Translations under genes and position numbers: made by a program
The notes under the pieces: model-generated
Database searches by the model: none
Seen by the model: only the letters and a program-made list of their open reading frames with translations
What the model was told of the DNA's origin: nothing
IMG/VR virus record: IMGVR_UViG_2767802067_000003
Span: 1 to 64,000 of that record
Reading direction: 5' to 3' (one strand)
DNA: 64,000 bases
Source: a virus
Taxonomy: Duplodnaviria > Caudoviricetes
In this document: positions 6,687-56,471 of the stretch, piece by piece
Numbering within the stretch: the stretch's first letter is position 1
Layout: every line of letters begins with the position of its first letter

Positions 6687-6687
6687 C

Positions 6688-6716
6688 TTGACGTGTTAGT
6701 GCCTAGGCACTAACTT
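6688..6716 (+). promoter_or_regulatory. Sigma70/HrdB-type promoter with 20-bp palindromic operator
   Basis: TTGACG-17bp-TAACTT; perfect palindrome GTTAGTGCCTAGGCACTAAC at 6695-6714. Confidence 0.8.
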
Positions 6717-6798
6717 TGTCCATGTCGGACCGTGCAAGAAGACACGCAGCTCACCGACGCCGACCGTGTCCCGCCCTGACTGAAGGAGAAGGCCCCCG

Positions 6799-43679: not shown

Positions 43680-43723
43680 TGTCCGATACGGTCTTGCACT
43701 AATAGGAGCGCCCAGGCTCCCTG
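43680..43723 (+). repeat. Left copy of 44-bp inverted repeat
   Basis: TGTCCGATACGGTCTTGCACTAATAGGAGCGCCCAGGCTCCCTG; 39/44 identical to the reverse complement of 56428-56471. Confidence 0.9.
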
Positions 43724-45127: not shown

Positions 45128-45373
45128 GGCGAAGACAGTAAACCCACAACTACCCATCGTAGAGCCAGAATTGGGCCCGTGCAATTTCGTATCTCGGGAG
45201 CGGGCGATTGTGTCCGGAACCGCTTTCCCCGCTGGCTGGAACCCGACCCGACGGCCACCCGCGATGGCCCCAGACACCGATCCGCGTCGCGTCGTCCGCA
45301 TCCGCTCAGGACTGCCATGGGCCGGTACAGTAGGCCGTGGCTGGACACGCACGCCGATCGTCGCTGCCGCCCC

Positions 45374-45492
45374 GTCCCACGCCGGGAGAGCACCGTTCGA
45401 CCAAGGGGTCCCACCCGACGCCCGTGGTGAATTCACCGTGCCCTTCTCCGGGCGGGGTGCGTGGGCGACCCGCCGGATGTGAGAGCACCGTT
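45374..45492 (+). ncRNA. Candidate structured leader RNA, copy 2
   Basis: CCCACGCC...CGACCAAGG...GCGTGGG, ending about 28 nt before GTG; GAGAGCACCGTT repeated at 45386 and 45481. Confidence 0.4.
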
Positions 45493-46440
45493 GTGACCAA
45501 GCAGAACCAGTCCCGTGCCGGCCGCCGTGCCCGTAAGGCGCAGCAAGACGGCTCCACTGCCCAGTACACCGAACTGCTGCGTGCTGGAGGCAAGGAGCCG
45601 GACGCTCGGCCAGCCGTCCCGATCGCGTCAGCTACGCCGGGCGGTGAAGGCAAGACGACCCACGCCGTTGACCTTCGAGCGGGCCTGGCTGAGTACGGCC
45701 AGCGTGTAGTCCTGGTCGACCTCGACTCGCAGAACGACGCCCGGCTCAGCGCGGCCTCTCAGGAGGAGCCAGCTGGCGGCTGGCCCTACCGGCTGGTCGA
45801 TGCCCAGTGGCAGGGCTGGCTCACTGCGGGGAACGGACTGTACCGGGCGTCCTCCAGCCTGAACAGGCCGGGCTTGGAGGAGCCGTGGCCCTACGCCCGG
45901 ATCGTCGCCGAGCGCGGCCCCGTGCGCCCCGTCAACCACCCGGTCGAGGGCGACGACTCCACGGAGAGGCTGGCCGCGCTGTGGGACAAGGCGGGTCGGA
46001 AGGCGGTCGCGTCCACCCTGGTGGCGCTGTACCGGGCGGTGCTGCGCTTTCCGGCGTCCCTCTACGGCCCGCATCCGCTGACCTCCGGGCGGGAGGGCAG
46101 CTGGGAGTCCGCCCGGCTCTTGAACCTGGCCTACACCGTCGGCGGCGACCTGGATGATCGGCCGAAGCGGTTCGACCCGGAGGTCGCCGATGGCGTCGCG
46201 GACGTTCTGGAAGGCTGGGTGCGGCGTCCCGAGACGTACACCGAGGTCGCGGAGAACCTTGCTGGCATCTTCGGCCGATACGCCGACCGTGCCGGCGGCT
46301 GGACGAAGGTTGCCGATCAGTGGCTGCAGCCCGGCGCCCGCGCCGGCCACGATCCTGACACCGTCTTCGCGGTCGGCTCCTGGCTGCTCTTGGGCTCCTC
46401 CGAGCATCTGCAGGCGTTCCTGGACTCCGCGCACCGGTAG
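45493..46440 (+). CDS. Chimeric protein with a truncated ParA-type Walker A segment
   Basis: GGEGKTTHAVDL...G.RVVLVDLDSQ; remainder not ParA-like. Confidence 0.6.
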   Translation: MTKQNQSRAGRRARKAQQDGSTAQYTELLRAGGKEPDARPAVPIASATPGGEGKTTHAVDLRAGLAEYGQRVVLVDLDSQNDARLSAASQEEPAGGWPYRLVDAQWQGWLTAGNGLYRASSSLNRPGLEEPWPYARIVAERGPVRPVNHPVEGDDSTERLAALWDKAGRKAVASTLVALYRAVLRFPASLYGPHPLTSGREGSWESARLLNLAYTVGGDLDDRPKRFDPEVADGVADVLEGWVRRPETYTEVAENLAGIFGRYADRAGGWTKVADQWLQPGARAGHDPDTVFAVGSWLLLGSSEHLQAFLDSAHR

Positions 46441-47412: not shown

Positions 47413-48387
47413 CTACAGCTCGACCAGGACGATGCCGGCGGCGTTTTGGGTGATGTCCGTGGGCGGGTCGCCGTCCAGGCAGGCCTGGACGTATTCGGGC
47501 AGTTGCGGGCGCAAGCCGCGCTGTATGTGCCGTACGAATTCGCTGCTGAAGTAGTTCCGGATCCGAGGCCCCAGGGTTTGCATTCGGTGTGGGCCGTCAT
47601 AAATGAAGTCGGGCTCATGGCCGCGATAACTGCCGAGCATGTTGAACATCGTCCTGGCGATGCGCGGGGCGCCGATTTGGTCGACTTCCAGGAATGGCCG
47701 AAGTTCCTTACGAATTCCGGACAGTGCCAGTTCGGTGAAGGGGGTTTCCGGCGCGTTTGGGTTGGAGAGGTCGACGATCGGGGTGGCCTGGTGGAAGACG
47801 CTCACCGCGTCGGGGCCGCCCGGCAGGTGCCGAAGCCGGGTGGCGGCGATCGCTTCGTCCTTGGTCTCGTCGCGGACGGGCAGCGCGGGCAGGAGGGTCA
47901 CGCCTGCGCCTTCCCGCAGGTGACAGGCGGTGTCACGGTGCCTGCTCGGGCAATTCATGGCCGACCGGTAGTCCACATCCCCGGCGTACAGCATGAGGCC
48001 GGCGGGCAAGCCCAGACGGTCGGCACTGCGTAGCAGGAGGGTCAGCTGCTGCTCCAGCTTCAGAGGGGCGTCAGAGCCGACTTTCCATTTCCGCCCGATC
48101 CGCTTGAGGCTTTTCGCCTGAATCAGGCAGCCGAAGGACTGGCCGGAACGGTCAACCCACCACCACATGTAGTCGGCTCCGGTGCGCTTTTCCTGCGGAC
48201 GGTTGAATTTTGCATAGCGGACCTCTGGAAACATTTTCTCGCACAGCTCGTGCGTGATATGCTCCTCTTCCCAAATGGCATATCCATGGTTGATCTGAGT
48301 GGCCATTTTCTGCTCTGCATGCCGAGTCCCGCGCGTGAATGCGACGTGGGCGGGCGGGATGTAGTCGGCACGCTCGGCAAGGCTCAT
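47413..48387 (-). CDS. DUF6615-like PD-(D/E)xK nuclease
   Basis: E.I...E..TGADY.WW...IQAK motif; AT-richer than its neighbours; start uncertain (48438/48387/48306). Confidence 0.65.
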   Translation of the reverse strand: MSLAERADYIPPAHVAFTRGTRHAEQKMATQINHGYAIWEEEHITHELCEKMFPEVRYAKFNRPQEKRTGADYMWWWVDRSGQSFGCLIQAKSLKRIGRKWKVGSDAPLKLEQQLTLLLRSADRLGLPAGLMLYAGDVDYRSAMNCPSRHRDTACHLREGAGVTLLPALPVRDETKDEAIAATRLRHLPGGPDAVSVFHQATPIVDLSNPNAPETPFTELALSGIRKELRPFLEVDQIGAPRIARTMFNMLGSYRGHEPDFIYDGPHRMQTLGPRIRNYFSSEFVRHIQRGLRPQLPEYVQACLDGDPPTDITQNAAGIVLVEL

Positions 48388-48897
48388 GGGCGCATCTCCC
48401 GGGAGGCGAGGGGCATCGTGCAGTCCATCATCTCGCACGGCACTGACGCCGCGTCAGCGCCAGTCGGCCGCCGCTCGCTGGTGGACGCGCCGCCGACAGA
48501 CGATCAGTGGCCGCTGGTCCTGCGGGTCGCCTGGGGCCGCCTGGACCACCGGGGCCGGACGAAGGAGCGGGGCGTCGGCGTCATCTTGGCCTGTGGCTCC
48601 TCGGCACTGTGGGGCGATCTCGACAACTCGCTGTCGGGAAAGCCGTGTTCGCGCTGCGCCCAGCGAATCGAGCGGGACAACAGCGCTGCGATCACTGCGC
48701 CCGCCGCGCTGCTCGCCGCACTTGATCGGAAGGCGCCGGCCGGTCAACTGTCACTCCTGCCCGCGGCCGCGCTGCTTGATCTTGTGCGCGCCAGTCGGAT
48801 AGCGCCTCGGCGGCCGACCGCGCTCGCGCGCCGGTCGGCTGTCCGCTGACGCCCGCTCAACCGCCCTTCGAGGCCCCGCACAGCGCGTTAACGATGG

Positions 48898-48931
48898 TTA
48901 GCCTCGTATATCTGGCAATATACGAGGCAAC
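48898..48931. other. loxP-like 13-8-13 recombination site
   Basis: TTAGCCTCGTATA-TCTGGCAA-TATACGAGGCAAC; inner 10 bp of the arms form a perfect inverted repeat; intergenic. Confidence 0.6.
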
Positions 48932-48982
48932 CGCTGTGAGAGGGCTTCCCTCGCAAGCACCGTTTTCCGGCAGGAGGCCATC

Positions 48983-49339
48983 GTGGCGACGTCGACCGAA
49001 CCCGGGACGCCGCTCGGGCGCCTGCTGGACGAGCTGGCCGGCTTCGTCCGGGCCCGGGTCGCCGAGCGTACCGCGGACCCCGAGCGGCCGGCCCCCGAAC
49101 GCGAGCACTTCACCCACCTGCTCCCGCGGCTCGACCAGGTCCTCGCCCACGCCCACGACAGGGGCGCGCTCCAGCAGCTCCACGCCCTGCGCCTGTTCCG
49201 GGAGATGTCGCTGCTCTGGTACGGCCACGACGAGCACCCCGACAACCCGTGGCTCGAACAGCTCGCCACCACCGACCCCGAGGCCGCGCTGCGCCAGCTG
49301 CGGGACGTCCAGGACCGGGTCGACCGCATGACAGACTGA
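48983..49339 (+). CDS. Hypothetical protein
   Basis: AGGAGG RBS. Confidence 0.7.
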   Translation: MATSTEPGTPLGRLLDELAGFVRARVAERTADPERPAPEREHFTHLLPRLDQVLAHAHDRGALQQLHALRLFREMSLLWYGHDEHPDNPWLEQLATTDPEAALRQLRDVQDRVDRMTD

Positions 49340-49395
49340 TCACCAACATCGCTCTCGCGCACCGCAGTTGAGCCGACCGAACAGGAATCCAGCCC

Positions 49396-50166
49396 GTGCC
49401 GTCCGAACCGTCCGGCCGCCCCGCCGCCGCCGCCGCCGACCAGCTTCACGCCTTCGTCGGCTTCGTGCGCTCCCGGCTGCACGAGGAGCTGGCCGCCCCC
49501 GGTCTGCACCACTCCACCCGGCGCGCCCTGCAGCGCCGGCTGGCCCTGGTTGGCGAGATCGCGGACCAGGCCGACGGCACGGCCCCGGCCTCCCTGATGG
49601 GCCGGGCGGCGAACGGCGTCGAACTGGTCGACCTCGCCCAGCGCTGGCGCGACCACCCCGACTACCCCGGCACCCGCACCACCCCGGAGGCGGCCGCGCC
49701 CGGCCGGGAGCTGCCCGCCGCGGTGACCCACATCTACGAACGCGGCATCACCGCGGATCTGCTGTCCGAGGTCGGCGGCTACCCGGGCCTGCACGAGGAG
49801 GCCCGGACCGAGCTCGCCGACAACCACCCCTGCCGCCGTGCCGAACCCACCGCGCCCGTGCCGGTCACCGTCACCTCCGACGGCACCGGTTTCCTCACCG
49901 TCCGCGCCGAGATCCGCTGCACCGACCGGGCCTGCCGGATCGAGGCCGCCGCCGTCGCCCGCTACGAACCGCTGCTGGCCGCCTACGAGGTGGCGCGGGA
50001 GTCGCTGCGCGGCGCCGACCTGCTGCTGCAGCAGCCCAACCTGGTCACCACCCCGGACCCGGAGCAGCTCCGGCGGCAGTGGGCCCGGCGGGAGAAGGCC
50101 ATCCGCGAGACGCTGCGCACCGTGATCGACACGCTCGCCCCGCACGCCGCCCCCGCCGCCGAGTGA
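49396..50166 (+). CDS. Hypothetical protein
   Basis: L..LAxRWRDHPDY motif; coding-like. Confidence 0.65.
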   Translation: MPSEPSGRPAAAAADQLHAFVGFVRSRLHEELAAPGLHHSTRRALQRRLALVGEIADQADGTAPASLMGRAANGVELVDLAQRWRDHPDYPGTRTTPEAAAPGRELPAAVTHIYERGITADLLSEVGGYPGLHEEARTELADNHPCRRAEPTAPVPVTVTSDGTGFLTVRAEIRCTDRACRIEAAAVARYEPLLAAYEVARESLRGADLLLQQPNLVTTPDPEQLRRQWARREKAIRETLRTVIDTLAPHAAPAAE

Positions 50167-50258
50167 ACCCGACCCCGGCCAACGGGCCCGCCGGACGCAC
50201 CCCGCCAGCCGCCTTCGTGCTGTTCCCGTTCCGCTCACACCCCGTCAAGGAGACCCGG

Positions 50259-50585
50259 ATGACGTACGACGACCCCGAGGACCGCGCCGAAGCCGAGGCC
50301 CAGACCAGGCAGCGGCAGGCCGCCGACCTGGAGCACATCGCGGCCTACTACAGGCTGGAGCGCCGCCTGGGCATCACGGTCGCGCTCGGCGGCCGGGTCC
50401 GCCACGACGGCCGCGAAGGCGTCATCGTGGACACCGCCGGCCAGCGGCTCAAGGTCATGTTCTACGGCGACCAGCAGGCCAGCATCTGCCACGCCACCTC
50501 GCAGATGGAGTACGAGACGGCTACCGGCTGGATCACCGCCACCCCCGTCCCGGACCCGTGGGCCGCCGGCCCGGCCGCCGCATGA
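50259..50585 (+). CDS. Small SH3-like hypothetical protein
   Basis: AAGGAG RBS; GxRV..xG.xGVIV motif. Confidence 0.65.
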   Translation: MTYDDPEDRAEAEAQTRQRQAADLEHIAAYYRLERRLGITVALGGRVRHDGREGVIVDTAGQRLKVMFYGDQQASICHATSQMEYETATGWITATPVPDPWAAGPAAA

Positions 50586-51142
50586 GCGTGACGGACAACG
50601 AGTCCGCCGCCGCCCGCGCGTTCTGGGCCGAGGGCGAGCAGGTGGTCCCGGCACTGAGAATCCGTCCACCCGAGAACGCCACCGAGCAGGCCCTGCTCGG
50701 CTGGATGAACATGCACATCACCATGGAACGCGAGGCGAACCGGCCAATCAGCGGCTGGGCGTACCGGTCCGTGTTCGAGCTCGTCCTCGAACACGGACGC
50801 TGGTTCAACCCGGTCAGCCTCCCTGCAGCCATCCCGCGTGGCCCGGAGAGGGAGTGTTTTCACAACGCGGCCGCCATCGAGCGGGCGCACCCGCACCTGC
50901 GCTACGTCGAGGGCTTCGCGATCGTTACCGGCAGCCCGGTGGCTACCGCCCACGCCTGGTGCACCGACGGCGACGGCAACGCGATCGATCCCACGTGGAC
51001 TGAACTCGGCGAGGACACAGCGTACTTCGGCATCCCGTTGGCCCCGACGCTGCGCCCGAACCCCCGGTTCAGCAGCGGCGTCCTCGAACGCCCCGAGACC
51101 CTGTACCCGCTGCTGCAAGACGGGCTGACGGCCAGCACCTGA
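50582..51142 (+). CDS. Transglutaminase/papain-like Cys-His-Asp protein, paralogue 1
   Basis: CFHNA...YVEG...HAW...IDPTW. Confidence 0.65.
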   Translation: MSVTDNESAAARAFWAEGEQVVPALRIRPPENATEQALLGWMNMHITMEREANRPISGWAYRSVFELVLEHGRWFNPVSLPAAIPRGPERECFHNAAAIERAHPHLRYVEGFAIVTGSPVATAHAWCTDGDGNAIDPTWTELGEDTAYFGIPLAPTLRPNPRFSSGVLERPETLYPLLQDGLTAST

Positions 51143-51168
51143 ACAGCACCGACCAGAGAGGCACTTCC

Positions 51169-52272
51169 ATGGAGCAGTACCCGCACGATCACGCCGAAGA
51201 ACTGGAGCGCGCCGGGTACCGTGACCGGATCCACCGGCTTCACCAGGTCATCGCCGCGCGCGTGAGCGACCACCGCGTGGCCGGCGAGGCCGTCGACGCG
51301 GTGGTCGCCCGCCTGGCGGCCCGTTCCGTGGAGAACCTGCTGAGCGAGGCCACGCTTCTCGGCGAGGGCGCTGCGGCGGACGGCTTCACCGAGACGGTGG
51401 CGCTCCACCAGCTGGAGACTCTCCTCGACCGGGCTGCCCGGCGCGCGTGGCCCACCGAGGCAGCGCCGTTGGACGACATCGCCCGCCTGCGCAAGGACAC
51501 CAACGTGCAGGTGGCCGCGCTGCTCGCCGGTCGGCAGCCCGGGCCGTCGGCCGTGCGAGTCCGCGACCAGGTCAACGAGCTGGCCGGCTTCATCAACCGC
51601 CGCGCCCAGGAACCGGTCCACAACACCGCCGAAGGCCTGCACTCGGGCCTCGGCCAGATCCTGCGCACCACCTCCTACGCCCACGGAGCCGTGGACACGG
51701 CACTTGCCGCTGGCCGCCTGGACTTGGCCGCCAAGCAGTTGCGCCACCTGGTCCAGCAAGCACAGAAGTGGGCCGATCAGGCGGAGTACCCGTCCGCTCT
51801 GGTGGCTGACCTTCTGCGGACCGCGGAAGCGGCCGATCCACACAACGAACCCGCGCCCGGCCCGGTCGTTCCGGAAGCAAGGACCGCCCAGCGGGCCGTA
51901 GCGGGCAGTCCCGCGAAGAAGATCACGCTCGCTCAGGCTGAGCGCCTCTTCCGCGCGATGGGTCTGGCCATCGGCAGCGACGGCCAGGAGGGCTTCACCT
52001 TCCGGGCCCGCGGCGGCCGCGACGGCTCGCGGGCAGTCAAGTCCTCCCACCAGATCGAGGTGCGGTACCGCCTCGCCGGGGGCTACACCCTCATGGGCAA
52101 CGACCTCGACGGCCTCCCCGAGGTGATCGAGCACTACCGGTGGGCCGTCGAGAAGGCCCCTCAGCACGGCTACACCGTGACCTGGAGGCCAGCCAACGTC
52201 TGGATGGAAGTCACCCGCACTCCGGTTGCCCCCGAGACGCCCGCCGACCGACCGCAGGAGGCCGCATCGTGA
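51169..52272 (+). CDS. Hypothetical protein
   Basis: 367 aa, helical; GAGG RBS. Confidence 0.7.
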   Translation: MEQYPHDHAEELERAGYRDRIHRLHQVIAARVSDHRVAGEAVDAVVARLAARSVENLLSEATLLGEGAAADGFTETVALHQLETLLDRAARRAWPTEAAPLDDIARLRKDTNVQVAALLAGRQPGPSAVRVRDQVNELAGFINRRAQEPVHNTAEGLHSGLGQILRTTSYAHGAVDTALAAGRLDLAAKQLRHLVQQAQKWADQAEYPSALVADLLRTAEAADPHNEPAPGPVVPEARTAQRAVAGSPAKKITLAQAERLFRAMGLAIGSDGQEGFTFRARGGRDGSRAVKSSHQIEVRYRLAGGYTLMGNDLDGLPEVIEHYRWAVEKAPQHGYTVTWRPANVWMEVTRTPVAPETPADRPQEAAS

Positions 52273-52835
52273 CCGGCGCCGCCGACGAAGCCGAGCAGAA
52301 GCTGCGGCACTGGGTGGACACGTACGCCCAACTCCACTCCGGTGACGAGAGCTGGCGCTTCCGTAGTTTTGCCGCGCTCGTTGCCGCCTTCGGAGTCCTC
52401 TACCACCCTGCCCCCTGGCCGGCGGATCAGCCCCGGGGGCGGCTGGGCCGCTGCTTCGAGGAGGCCAGCAAGTACGCCGACGCCACCGGCGCCACGTACG
52501 TCGAGGGGTTCGTCCTGGTCCCGGACGCCCCGCTGATGTTCCCGGTCTTCGAACACGCCTGGTGTCTGACACCTCAGGGCACCGTGGCCGACACGACCAT
52601 CCCCGATGGCGGCGCCGTCCTCTACCTCGGCCTGCCGCTGCACGCCGCGTTCCGCCGCACCGCCCAGGCCCGGCGACGGACCTGGGCGGTGCTCACCTAC
52701 GACACGGACAATCTCCTAGCCGGCGTCAACGACGTAGTCCTGAAAGCTGGCCTGCCACCGGGCGCACTGGCCCTTCCGAACACACCTTCACCGCCCCCTG
52801 GTGGGCCTGGCCCCGTCGTACAGGAGGTTCCGTGA
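52269..52835 (+). CDS. Transglutaminase/papain-like Cys-His-Asp protein, paralogue 2
   Basis: CFEEA...YVEG...HAW...ADTT; coupled to the recombinase. Confidence 0.65.
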   Translation: MTGAADEAEQKLRHWVDTYAQLHSGDESWRFRSFAALVAAFGVLYHPAPWPADQPRGRLGRCFEEASKYADATGATYVEGFVLVPDAPLMFPVFEHAWCLTPQGTVADTTIPDGGAVLYLGLPLHAAFRRTAQARRRTWAVLTYDTDNLLAGVNDVVLKAGLPPGALALPNTPSPPPGGPGPVVQEVP

Positions 52836-54175
52836 CCACCCTCGATCAGTCAACTCCCGCCGAGGTCGTCGACGCCGAACTGCTGGACGACGACGAGCAA
52901 GCCCTTCCCGCAGTACGCGAGCCCCTGGGCTTGGACCTCAGCGACTTCACCCGGGACACCGTGCTGGTCGCCGGGCGGCCGATCCCGGCCGCCTTCGTCG
53001 CGCCGCAGTACTCCGCCGCGGACTACGTCATCTCCGAGGACGTCGCCGAGCTGATCGAGGCGGCCCGGCCGGAGAACACCGAACGCAACCGGCGCAGCCA
53101 GATCGGCCTGTTCCAGCGCTGGTGCGACGACCGCGGCCGGGTCGCCCTGCCGTGCACCACCGCGACGCTGATCGAGTACATCGGCGGTCTCATCCAGCGC
53201 GGCCTCGACCCGGACACCATCGCGGCCCACAAGAGCACGGTCGTCACCTGGCAGGAGGAGGAGACCCCGGGCAACACCCGGCCCGGAACCCGGCAGGTCT
53301 CTGCGATGATCGCGGCGTACCGGGCCAGGTGGAGCCGCACCAAGACCGACAAGCAGTCACCGGCGATCCGCGAGGTCGACCTGGAGCTGATGGTCGCGGT
53401 CTGCGACGAATCCGGTCGGCCTGCCGACCTGCGCGACGCGGCCATCGCCTGCCTGGGCTTCCACCTGCTCACCCGTCGGATCGAGTTGGCCAGCCTGCTC
53501 GTCACCCACGTCACGCTGGAGCGCGATGGCATGCACGTGCGGCTGGTGGACCGCAAGACCCACAAGGACGGCACGGTCTTCGAGGCTTGGATCCCGGCCC
53601 GGGACGACGCCCCCCATATCTGCCCCGTCCGCCGGGTGCGGGCCTGGCTGGAGTACGGCCGCCTGATCCACCAGCCGCAGGACCAGGCGCTCTTCCGGGC
53701 GTTGGACAAGGCCGGCCGCCTGGCCGTGCGCCTCACCCCGCAGACCCGACCCAAGCACCCCGACGGCACCGACAAGCAGGACCGCGAGCTCACCGCAGAG
53801 GACTGGACGCGGCTGTCGATGCTCTCCGGCGAGGCCATCAACAAGTTCGTCAAGGCCCTCGCCAGGAAGGCGTACGCCAAGATCGCACACCTCACCGAGG
53901 AGCAGCGCGTCGGGCTCGGCCACAACGCGCTGCTCAACGAACAGACCGCCTCCTCCGTCACCTCGCACGGCCTGCGGGCCGGCGGGGCAACCGAGCTGTA
54001 CGAGTCGGACGTGCCGGAGGACGTTATCGCGATGCTCGGTGACTGGGCCAAGGGGTCCGCGGCGATGAAGCGCTACTTCCGGAAGATCCGGACCAGCGGT
54101 GAGAACGCCTGGGCGGTCGCCCGGCAGGCCCGGGAGAGGATGCGGCTCGCGGCGAGCCAGACGGTCGTCGCGTAG
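52832..54175 (+). CDS. Cre-like tyrosine recombinase
   Basis: N-domain NT.R....F..WC...LP......Y; catalytic RRIE, KT, HGLR, GDW, RYFR (R-K-H-R-W-Y). Confidence 0.92.
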   Translation: MTTLDQSTPAEVVDAELLDDDEQALPAVREPLGLDLSDFTRDTVLVAGRPIPAAFVAPQYSAADYVISEDVAELIEAARPENTERNRRSQIGLFQRWCDDRGRVALPCTTATLIEYIGGLIQRGLDPDTIAAHKSTVVTWQEEETPGNTRPGTRQVSAMIAAYRARWSRTKTDKQSPAIREVDLELMVAVCDESGRPADLRDAAIACLGFHLLTRRIELASLLVTHVTLERDGMHVRLVDRKTHKDGTVFEAWIPARDDAPHICPVRRVRAWLEYGRLIHQPQDQALFRALDKAGRLAVRLTPQTRPKHPDGTDKQDRELTAEDWTRLSMLSGEAINKFVKALARKAYAKIAHLTEEQRVGLGHNALLNEQTASSVTSHGLRAGGATELYESDVPEDVIAMLGDWAKGSAAMKRYFRKIRTSGENAWAVARQARERMRLAASQTVVA

Positions 54176-54695
54176 GCGGTTACCGCTCGGGCAGATCAGC
54201 CCATGGCACCCGCCGGGCCGCCCGGGGCCACGCGGTTGCCGCTCCCGGCCCGCCCGAAAAATGGCCAGCGGATGCGGATGGTCGTGGGAGAAGATGCTCG
54301 ACATGTCGAACGCGTGGACCGCCCCCGACACCGGCTGGTACCGACTCGCCCCTGGAAAGGTGCCGGAGTATCTGGGCAAGCAGCTTCCTGATCCCGCAGC
54401 ACAAGGCCAGTGGACGGTCGTTCCGCTGAACGCCTCGCCTCTGGCCGGGCCCCGCCCGGTCACCATGATCGGCGAAACGACGGCGAGCGTCATGCACTTC
54501 CAGCGCGGCGATATGACCATGAACAGCGGCGGAACGCTGCGGGGGACGCCAGCGCCCGCGCTCACGGTCCCATGGCGGCCATGATGCGACCCCAGAGCTG
54601 ACCGCCGCGAGACCTCACCCGTCTCCGACGCACGATCCGGCGGAGTTCTGCCCGGGCGCTCACAGCGAACGCTCCGCTGCCCGTACGCTCTTCCC

Positions 54696-55634
54696 ATGAG
54701 CGGCGGTGAGGCCTTCGACCACTTGAACGACGTCCTGCGGGTCGCTCTCGCGGACCGTGACATCCACACCAGCGAGAAGCGAGGCGAGCGCCTCAGGGTG
54801 ACCGTGGCCACCGTCGAGCGTGGCCTGACGTTCCTGGCCCGTCCCCTGCTACGGGTTCCCGGTGCCCTGCTGGACGAGCAGGTCGTCGGGTACCACGAGT
54901 GGCCGCTGACCCTGCTCGGGCACATCGCCGCCGGGCAGTGCCGGGCGAAACCGCCCTACAACCGCCTGAAGCCCTCCAGCGTCCGGTACATCATGGACGG
55001 CCTGGCGGACCTGAACAGGGCAGCCGGGAACCGCCCGTACTGGTGGGAGGCCAAGGGCATGCGGCCGTGGGCCGGCCACACCAAGAACCCGGTCGCTCCG
55101 CTGGAGCACGTCGTCCTGCGCCGCGAGTTGAGCGAGCCCGGCCCCCAGCGCTGGGAGCCGTACCGGCTGCGCCTGCTCGCCGCCGTCGAGTTGCTGTGGG
55201 ACACCGGGACGACGCCCAGCGGCCTGGTCGCCGCCAACGTGGACGACTTGTCCGCTGACTTCTCGCGCATTCGACTCGCGTGGACCGCGCCAGGGCGGCA
55301 CACCGAGCGGGTGGAGCAGGAGTGCCTGCTGCACCCGAACACGACGGCCGCGTTGAAGATGTGGCTTCCGGTGCGAGACCAGGTCGTACAGGACACGCTT
55401 CGCCAGGGCCTGGAGGGCTCCCGGGCGCTGTTCATCACCCTGCGGCACACTACGGGCGCGCAGAAGGACGGATCGCCTCGGCAGGTCCCGCCCGGCGTCA
55501 GGATCCTGCGCACCGGCCTGGACACCGCTTGGCTGTCGTGGATCCGGAGAGCGAACAGCCACCACGCCGGGGAAGCCGGATGGCCGATCGCCACCGACTT
55601 CTACCGGGTCGCCCGGGGAGACGGCCCTACATAG
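54696..55634 (+). CDS. Degenerate tyrosine-recombinase-fold protein
   Basis: [27 protein letters not shown] box I with the Arg replaced; LFITL; no HxxR or catalytic Tyr box; TACGCT 6 nt before ATG. Confidence 0.6.
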
Positions 55635-56427: not shown

Positions 56428-56471
56428 CAGGCAGCCTCGGCGCTCCTATTAGTGCAACACGGCATCGGACA
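56428..56471 (-). repeat. Right copy of 44-bp inverted repeat
   Basis: Reverse complement TGTCCGATGCCGTGTTGCACTAATAGGAGCGCCGAGGCTGCCTG. Confidence 0.9.

Follow-up and report, generated by a model that had tools for sequence, protein, structure and literature searches.

A candidate MrpA/mrpS-family (Cre/loxP-like) recombinase and its putative palindromic site on a phage-like element of a high-GC actinomycete

Does a loxP-like palindrome that lies kilobases away from a tyrosine recombinase gene belong to that gene, and if so, what is the pair for? The question is raised by a 64,000-nucleotide stretch of DNA from a virus of the Caudoviricetes (IMG/VR record IMGVR_UViG_2767802067_000003, positions 1 to 64,000; the whole stretch is called the window below), in which a preliminary description made from the letters alone had noticed an AT-rich palindrome at 48898-48931 and a Cre-like recombinase gene at 52832-54175, and had proposed that the two are cognate. 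The analysis reported here leads us to regard the palindrome as probably the core recombination and binding site of the 52832-54175 recombinase, the two forming a simple Cre/loxP-like module of the MrpA/mrpS family.

The site (a lox/mrpS-like core, 48898..48931, no strand assigned) reads TTAGCCTCGTATA-TCTGGCAA-TATACGAGGCAAC, letter for letter as first described. It contains a perfect inverted repeat at 48901-48928, GCCTCGTATAT-CTGGCA-ATATACGAGGC (arms 48901-48911 and 48918-48928), and its geometry can be read both as 13-8-13, which is that of loxP (PMC10250229), and as 11-6-11, with an asymmetric centre, CTGGCA. The inner arm (TCGTATA/TATACGA) is identical to that of loxP, while the outer arm positions differ at 3-4 of 13; the arm matches of 10/13 and 9/13 given earlier are correct. 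Active Cre-type sites all carry T at position 7 and, beside the spacer, a G(T)-A-T(G)-A motif (PMC10250229), and it is because both are present here that the site resembles loxP. The gap that holds the site measures 540 bp and separates a gene on the minus strand (47413-48438) from one on the plus strand (48983-49339), and the recombinase start at 52832 is 3,901 bp downstream of the site. The preliminary description had found one such site in the window, and this holds for the genome as a whole: scans at up to 3 mismatches and a looser scan returned a single copy in 8.78 Mb, and the same scans detected no second, degenerate site bracketing a cassette in the contig or the genome.

The gene at 52832..54175 (plus strand) encodes a predicted Cre/MrpA-like tyrosine recombinase of 447 amino acids (aa), an assignment drawn from a Pfam match, a match to Cre, the predicted fold and homology to MrpA. 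Its open reading frame starts with GTG behind AGGAGG, carries the motifs HGLRAGG, GDW and KRYFRK, and matches Pfam Phage_integrase (PF00589) with an E-value of 6e-9. Among 24 homologues (alignment A2), R215, R382, W405 and Y415 are invariant, K242 is nearly so and H379 is mostly conserved, which bears out the Cre-type catalytic set that had been read from the sequence, including the Trp of GDW and the tyrosine of RYFR. A sequence search against all solved structures returned only Cre and the Cre-derived Tre at E < 0.01 (8e-4 to 4e-3), with a match that covers the N-terminal domain; W405 aligns with the GGW of Cre, the Trp standing at the position of the second conserved His. The AlphaFold model (AF2), built from the 24 homologues, has a mean predicted local distance difference test (pLDDT) score of 82. 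In a Foldseek search with this model the top 30 ranks were all Cre or Cre-derived Tre (E 1e-11 to 1e-8; target-normalised template modelling scores 0.62-0.69), with Cre chains in the lead at E 1e-11 and scores of 0.66-0.69, the next fold being XerH (E 2e-5), and lambda Int was also matched. The label "Cre-like" is thus justified by both sequence search and predicted fold, and on these two grounds the product is taken to be a tyrosine recombinase whose closest solved relative is Cre.

Cre and the window enzyme nevertheless share only 17-19% identity in the structural alignment, and the latter has a poorly modelled N-terminal extension of 80 residues. Residues 1-60 are disordered in the AF2 model and lack predicted secondary structure, and no arm-binding domain was seen at the N-terminus of that model. 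An acidic N-terminal motif (VVDAELVDDDE), also poorly modelled, is conserved in most of the recombinase family including MrpA of SCP2, and all close relatives (58-76% identity) carry some 45 additional residues ahead of HxxR (residues about 296-375 in alignment A2).

To ask whether site and enzyme travel together, the protein and the site pattern were searched separately in 401 genomes (400 sampled from the same family and the genome at hand). With a threshold of E 1e-10, 53 of the 401 genomes (about 13%) contain a recombinase homologue; the pattern GCCTCGTATA-N8-TATACGAGGC (up to 3 mismatches) is present in 33 of the 401, compared with 9 for the reversed control. A similar site near homologous recombinases elsewhere, a check suggested in the preliminary description, was found in 10 of the 400 other genomes, on plasmid pFP11, on a plasmid of S. 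atratus and in phage Gilgamesh. In the ten genomes (G242, G396, G394, G270, G398, G117, G186, G190, G373 and G211) the homologue is preceded by the site at distances of 11 bp to 2 kb (1.2 kb in G242, 0.4 kb in G396 and 2 kb in G270; across a contig break in G398; in G117 the homologue is a pseudogene). In these genomes, plasmids and phage the palindrome stands 5 bp to 2 kb before the start codon and heads the recombinase transcription unit, the spacing shrinking to 5-52 bp in compact relatives. Every genome checked contains a single intact site, one-contig genomes and complete chromosomes included.

In G394 an identical 28 bp is found 52 bp before the start codon chosen for the recombinase, and all that its 20-kb locus has in common with the window is the recombinase gene and 70 bp surrounding the site; among different clades no neighbouring gene is common except the recombinase. 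By blastn, blocks starting at 48883, 48889 or 48892 and ending at 48961 are 81-87% identical in G242, G396 and G394, with unrelated DNA around them. The conserved block of about 75 bp (48883..48961, plus strand) takes in the palindrome, some 18-20 bp on its left side and, on the other side, the opening ~30 nt of the operon leader. In an alignment of close relatives (A1) the arms are nearly invariant, the centre of the spacer is free, and no conserved sequence was seen further than about 20 bp to the left of the palindrome.

A blind search upstream of each homologue for the best 13-N6/8-13 palindrome revealed that the arms change with the enzyme. Clade A has arms of the type TAGCCTCGTATAW-N6-ATATACGAGGCWA; the clade of 36-39% identity, together with pFP11 and the S. 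atratus plasmid, has TAGCCCCGTATAA-TTTCCC-TTATACGGGGCTA and variants, and locus L017 has TTACCTCCTATAA-TTTCCC-TTATAGAAGGTAA. In the clade of 30% identity (331-aa enzymes) the palindrome is TGACCCTCSATAA-N6-TTATSGAGGGTCA and ends 5-19 bp before the start codon. Phage Gilgamesh and locus L026 have TAGCCGACAATAA-N6-TTGTTGTCGGTAA at the head of a gene string in which the recombinase is last; in the Streptomyces phage Gilgamesh itself, TAGCCGACAATAA-GTGCAA-TTGTTGTCGGTAA heads a string of four small genes ending in an annotated "tyrosine integrase". Clades distinguished by arm type include the TAGCCCCGTATAA clade and the TGACCCTCGATAA clade. Each clade has its own near-perfect palindrome in the same place, with the inner ATA(A)...(T)TAT and the geometry constant, and the same pattern is present on circular plasmids (pFP11 and the 120-kb S. 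atratus plasmid). Arms that change with the enzyme around a fixed inner motif and geometry are what the recombinase's own binding site should show. Co-occurrence in unrelated flanks and co-variation of arms and enzyme give the reading of 48898-48931 and the 52832-54175 product as a cognate pair strong support from comparison of sequences.

The co-variation also bears on an explanation in which the palindrome has nothing to do with the recombinase, being either a coincidental match or simply an RNA hairpin or terminator. Perfect inverted repeats (arms of at least 11 nt, 6-8 nt between them) stand at five places in the window, compared with 0.17 per simulated sequence (first-order Markov, 30 trials), which is more than chance would give; the four palindromes besides the one at 48901-48928 would speak for such an origin. 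All four are GC-rich, however, and only 48901-48928 is AT-rich; it is conserved with co-varying arms beside homologous recombinases in unrelated contexts, and it lies upstream of a gene start, not behind a gene end. The comparison between genomes already speaks against this explanation, and we give it hardly any credence. A perfect, GC-rich 13-6-13 palindrome at 50767-50798 (GTCCGTGTTCGAG-CTCGTC-CTCGAACACGGAC) lies within the coding sequence 50558-51142 and is unlike the recombinase-site consensus.

A second palindrome family, GCCTCGGATA-N8-TATCCGAGGC, was encountered in about ten genomes of several genera (loci L038-L045, L049, L055 and L058). As no recombinase of the MrpA-like family was found within 1.5 kb of these palindromes, they were set aside as targets of the same recombinase family and are probably something else.

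The nearest characterised system is MrpA/mrpS. MrpA of the S. coelicolor plasmid SCP2*, the one family member to have been studied, is said to resolve plasmid multimers (PMC3218068, citing Warth et al. 2011), and a pair of mrpS oligonucleotides together with MrpA is described as enough to recombine plasmids in E. coli (PMC4685060); the original papers are Warth, Haug & Altenbuchner 2011 (Arch Microbiol 193:187) and Warth & Altenbuchner 2013 (195:617), as cited through PMC3218068, PMC4685060 and PMC6486577. By BLASTP the window recombinase is 26-27% identical to SCP2 MrpA (E 3e-15; residues 10-419 against 15-358), the alignment being full-length and taking in the acidic N-terminal motif, there VVEAELVDD. 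The SCP2 mrpA gene (AL645771, 5935-7050) adjoins parA, and some 20 bp separate its ATG from the end of an imperfect palindrome upstream, TGGCTCTTGATAA-CGTTCC-TTCTCTAGAGCCA. The two systems thus resemble each other in the full-length homology of their enzymes, with the acidic motif and a GxW...Y C-terminus, in a palindrome with a 6-bp centre upstream of the gene (SCP2) or of the transcription unit (window), in an adjoining par gene and in a Streptomyces plasmid context. They differ, apart from the low identity, in the arm (GCCTCGTATA here, GGCTCTTGATA in SCP2), in the length of the enzyme (447 aa with the insertion of about 45 residues before HxxR, whereas MrpA has 371 aa), in the six genes that lie between site and recombinase in the window, and in a host element that carries phage structural genes. 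Judged from sequence, the pair is a further member of the MrpA/mrpS (Cre/loxP-like) family, the system itself being already characterised on SCP2*.

With Cre/loxP the module shares, besides the best structural and the best solved-sequence match and the Trp in place of the second His, a palindrome with an asymmetric centre, the inner arm and position-7 T described above, a single site in each replicon and a plasmid-prophage-like setting that includes a partition ATPase; a distance of 3.9 kb between site and gene sets it apart from loxP. Cre-type recombinase/site pairs obtained by mining include Vika/vox, Nigri/nox, Panto/pox and the YR series (PMC10250229). The single-recombinase Xer systems (XerH/difH) also have the site adjoining the recombinase gene, XerH is the second-best fold match, and the sites of relatives have an 11-6-11 type core with ATAA-N6-TTAT. 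XerS/difSL is likewise a single-recombinase Xer module. The structural match to Xer is, however, far weaker than that to Cre (E 2e-5 versus 1e-11), and the module is located on mobile elements and in only about 13% of the sampled genomes, a distribution that sets it apart from chromosomal housekeeping systems.

Seven genes make up an apparent operon (judged by the reading frames) that has the site at its head and the recombinase as its last gene. The genes were re-annotated from a frame plot based on GC content at third codon positions (GC3), and all are on the plus strand: gene 1 (48983..49339, 118 aa, GTG behind GGAGG, 52 bp after the site), gene 2 (49396..50166, 256 aa), gene 3 (50259..50585, 108 aa, placed by a frame switch in the GC3 plot and by its translation), gene 4 (50558..51142, 194 aa), gene 5 (51169..52272, 367 aa) and gene 6 (52269..52835, 188 aa), genes 2, 4 and 5 being placed by the GC3 plot and gene 6 by the plot and by start/stop overlaps. 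Gene 6 overlaps both of its neighbours, its GTG start with the stop of gene 5 and its TGA stop with the start of the recombinase (GTGA in each case), and it is the frame plot and these overlaps that tie the recombinase to the upstream genes. A hairpin at 52657-52692 was considered as a terminator before the recombinase and rejected, the GC3 frame plot placing it inside the gene 52269-52835. The spacing of 3.9 kb noted at the outset does not therefore mean a loose association, since the site heads an apparent operon ending in the recombinase.

None of the six genes belongs to a known family; searches of Pfam, PHROGs, NCBIfam and the protein atlas with them and their neighbours gave nothing usable (in the atlas, gene 5 returned no result and gene 6 matched only hypothetical actinobacterial proteins). 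Homologues are found at corresponding loci: gene 1 is 60% identical to a gene in the same position in G270; homologues of gene 2 lie between site and recombinase in G242, G270 and G227; those of gene 3 occur in G270, G227 and, upstream of distant recombinase homologues, at the 30%-identity loci L022 and L026; and those of gene 5 are 39% identical (G270 and G396). The genes between site and recombinase vary, being present in some relatives and gone in others.

This arrangement raises the alternative that the palindrome is a transcriptional operator only, placed at the promoter of the 48983-54175 operon and bound by the recombinase or another regulator with no strand exchange. Its constant place at the 5' end of a transcription unit, 5-52 bp before the start codon in compact loci, is what one would see of an operator; the conserved block includes the leader, and in one clade arm plus spacer reads TATAAT. 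Yet a consensus scan for a sigma-70-type promoter found none in 48400-54400, where none could be placed by eye either, and across clades only the recombinase, and no regulator gene, is common beside the site. The arms co-vary with the recombinase, and the geometry, the inner ATA(A)-N6/8-(T)TAT and the asymmetric centre match the core sites of lox, dif and mrpS. The homologous SCP2 site works in recombination (PMC4685060), and the catalytic residues, needless for a pure repressor, are intact and conserved. An operator without recombination is, in our estimate, unlikely.

If the palindrome is a recombination core, as we prefer, its mode of action would follow the known scheme. Each arm would be bound by one recombinase monomer, two sites would synapse as a tetramer, and strands would be exchanged across the central 6 bp by Tyr415 with the R-K-H-R-W set; the asymmetric centre CTGGCA would give the site its direction. 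Given a single site in each copy of the element, the reaction would reduce a circular element from dimers, or from forms with terminal redundancy, to monomers, and the pair may serve multimer resolution, or cyclisation as in P1, alongside the neighbouring ParA. Binding at the head of the operon probably also represses it, since the site heads the transcription unit that ends in the recombinase. The analysis establishes the site, the fold and catalytic residues, the homology to MrpA and Cre, and the joint occurrence and co-variation of site and enzyme; binding, cleavage positions, biological role and self-repression we infer, and resolution or cyclisation of circular forms together with self-repression is the most likely role.

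The preference for circularisation or dimer resolution over integration expressed in the preliminary description is favoured by the Cre-like enzyme, the single intact site, the nearby partition ATPase and the homologues on plasmids. The alternative, an integrase of the phage-like element that uses the palindrome as attP core for a host attB, has in its favour that homologues are annotated as integrases in database records (the recombinase family is common on plasmids, where 334 records match it, 73 of them from Streptomyces, with no annotation beyond integrase or tyrosine recombinase), that attP usually adjoins int, and that some homologues are found in large chromosomal contigs (G186, G180 and G200). 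The site is intact and mid-element, though, with phage genes on either side, and its single copy per genome, even in one-contig genomes and complete chromosomes, leaves no attL/attR pair. Homologues with the same site occur on circular plasmids (pFP11 and the 120-kb S. atratus plasmid), and MrpA is a resolvase in the account cited by PMC3218068. From the lambda Int type the system differs in an N-terminus whose first ~60 residues are modelled as disordered, so that no arm-binding domain is seen, and in conservation that stops about 20 bp to the left of the palindrome, which leaves no conserved arm-type sites around the core. The single intact mid-element site, the missing arm-binding domain in the model, the plasmid homologues and the MrpA precedent together argue for resolution or cyclisation, and we consider an integrase role quite improbable.

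The genomic context agrees with a plasmid-like element. A ParA-like partition ATPase gene (45337..46440, plus strand; Pfam AAA_31/CbiA, PHROG ParA-like, NCBIfam ParA) lies 2.5 kb upstream of the site, and SCP2 pairs partition and resolution genes likewise. Of phage structural genes the window has terminase, portal and tape measure, and phage genes flank the site on either side; no near-identical DNA was found in the phage collection. The 154-kb contig C13, which holds the window, has a GC content of 0.70 compared with ~0.73 for the large contigs; lanthipeptide dehydratase genes and an FtsK/TraB-like gene are found on it too, and ParA and ParB are encoded at its end. Its predicted gene content makes C13 a plasmid-type replicon, one half of which is phage-like. 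The 11.1-kb contig C110 ends in the same 99 bp with which C13 opens, and begins with their reverse complement; overlaps of 99 bp are the usual contig joins in this assembly, and the tail of C13 is a dead end. Contigs C12 and C165 represent the usual form of the same overlap pattern.

Several observations weigh against a resolution module of the kind preferred here. A homologue of 58% identity in G200 has neither a site nor a half-site within 10 kb, and no site genome-wide at 3 mismatches; several distant chromosomal homologues (L011, L012) are likewise without a site, and G129 and G227 have the site and no recombinase match at E 1e-10 or better; these exceptions may be decaying copies. Related elements share ancestry, so that the co-occurrence counts are not independent events, and conservation at the head of an operon is equally expected of a pure operator. 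Binding and recombination by the pair are what we infer. Finally, the assembly graph fits a linear replicon in which a 154-kb inverted repeat stands on either side of a unique 11-kb segment, and such a replicon would not need dimer resolution.

C13 and C110 are possibly a linear plasmid with giant terminal inverted repeats. If so, each molecule would have two inverted copies of site and recombinase, and the pair might invert the ~270-kb centre in the manner of Flp/FRT, or serve to exchange the arms, a role that we rate as very improbable; the six apparently co-transcribed genes could then be accessory or control factors. If true, a linear phage-plasmid of Streptomyces would be putting a Cre-type pair to a new biological use.

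Some further features of the contig were recorded. A 44-nt inverted repeat (43680-43723 and 56428-56471, 89% complementary) brackets a 12.7-kb block with ParA, the site and the recombinase operon, both copies lying in gaps between convergent genes. It was considered as an alternative target and rejected: it has only two copies in the genome and was found at 0 of 6 relative loci (14-20 kb), and an element confined to its own genome's two copies does not travel with the recombinase. An element of about 55-65 bp starting CTTGACACGTTAGTGCCTAGGCACTAAC is present in three copies (window 6687-6739; C13 1-65 and 938-1002), and its TTGACA hexamer followed by a perfect 18-bp palindrome makes it look like a repeated promoter/operator. 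Downstream of the recombinase, the gene 54696-55634 resembled neither the recombinase family in a profile comparison (hhalign probability 0.2%) nor, by sequence, any solved structure, and the product of 55280-56368 matches the C-terminal region of RelA/SpoT with its C-terminal ~65 residues (TIGR00691, E 3e-13, profile 543-609). Outside the window, C13 70252-73128 and neighbouring genes encode a lanthipeptide dehydratase (LanB N- and C-terminal domains), a PCMT-type methyltransferase and kinase-like proteins.

The mechanism that we propose is textbook; what comparative sequence evidence supports here is a natural Cre-type recombinase/site pair in a high-GC actinomycete. Mining pipelines that consider only proteins of 300-400 aa and search no further than 1 kb from the gene, as in PMC10250229, would overlook pairs of this kind, the present one included, an operon-head site being able to lie kilobases from its gene. 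With at least five arm types, the family offers a series of candidate orthogonal recombinase/site pairs that could serve multiplex genome engineering, e.g., in Streptomyces. To the element itself, phage-like and borne on a plasmid-type contig, the pair adds a putative stability unit that combines partition with resolution, and for the family it suggests that MrpA-like recombinases in Streptomycetaceae keep a cognate palindrome whose arms change with the enzyme.

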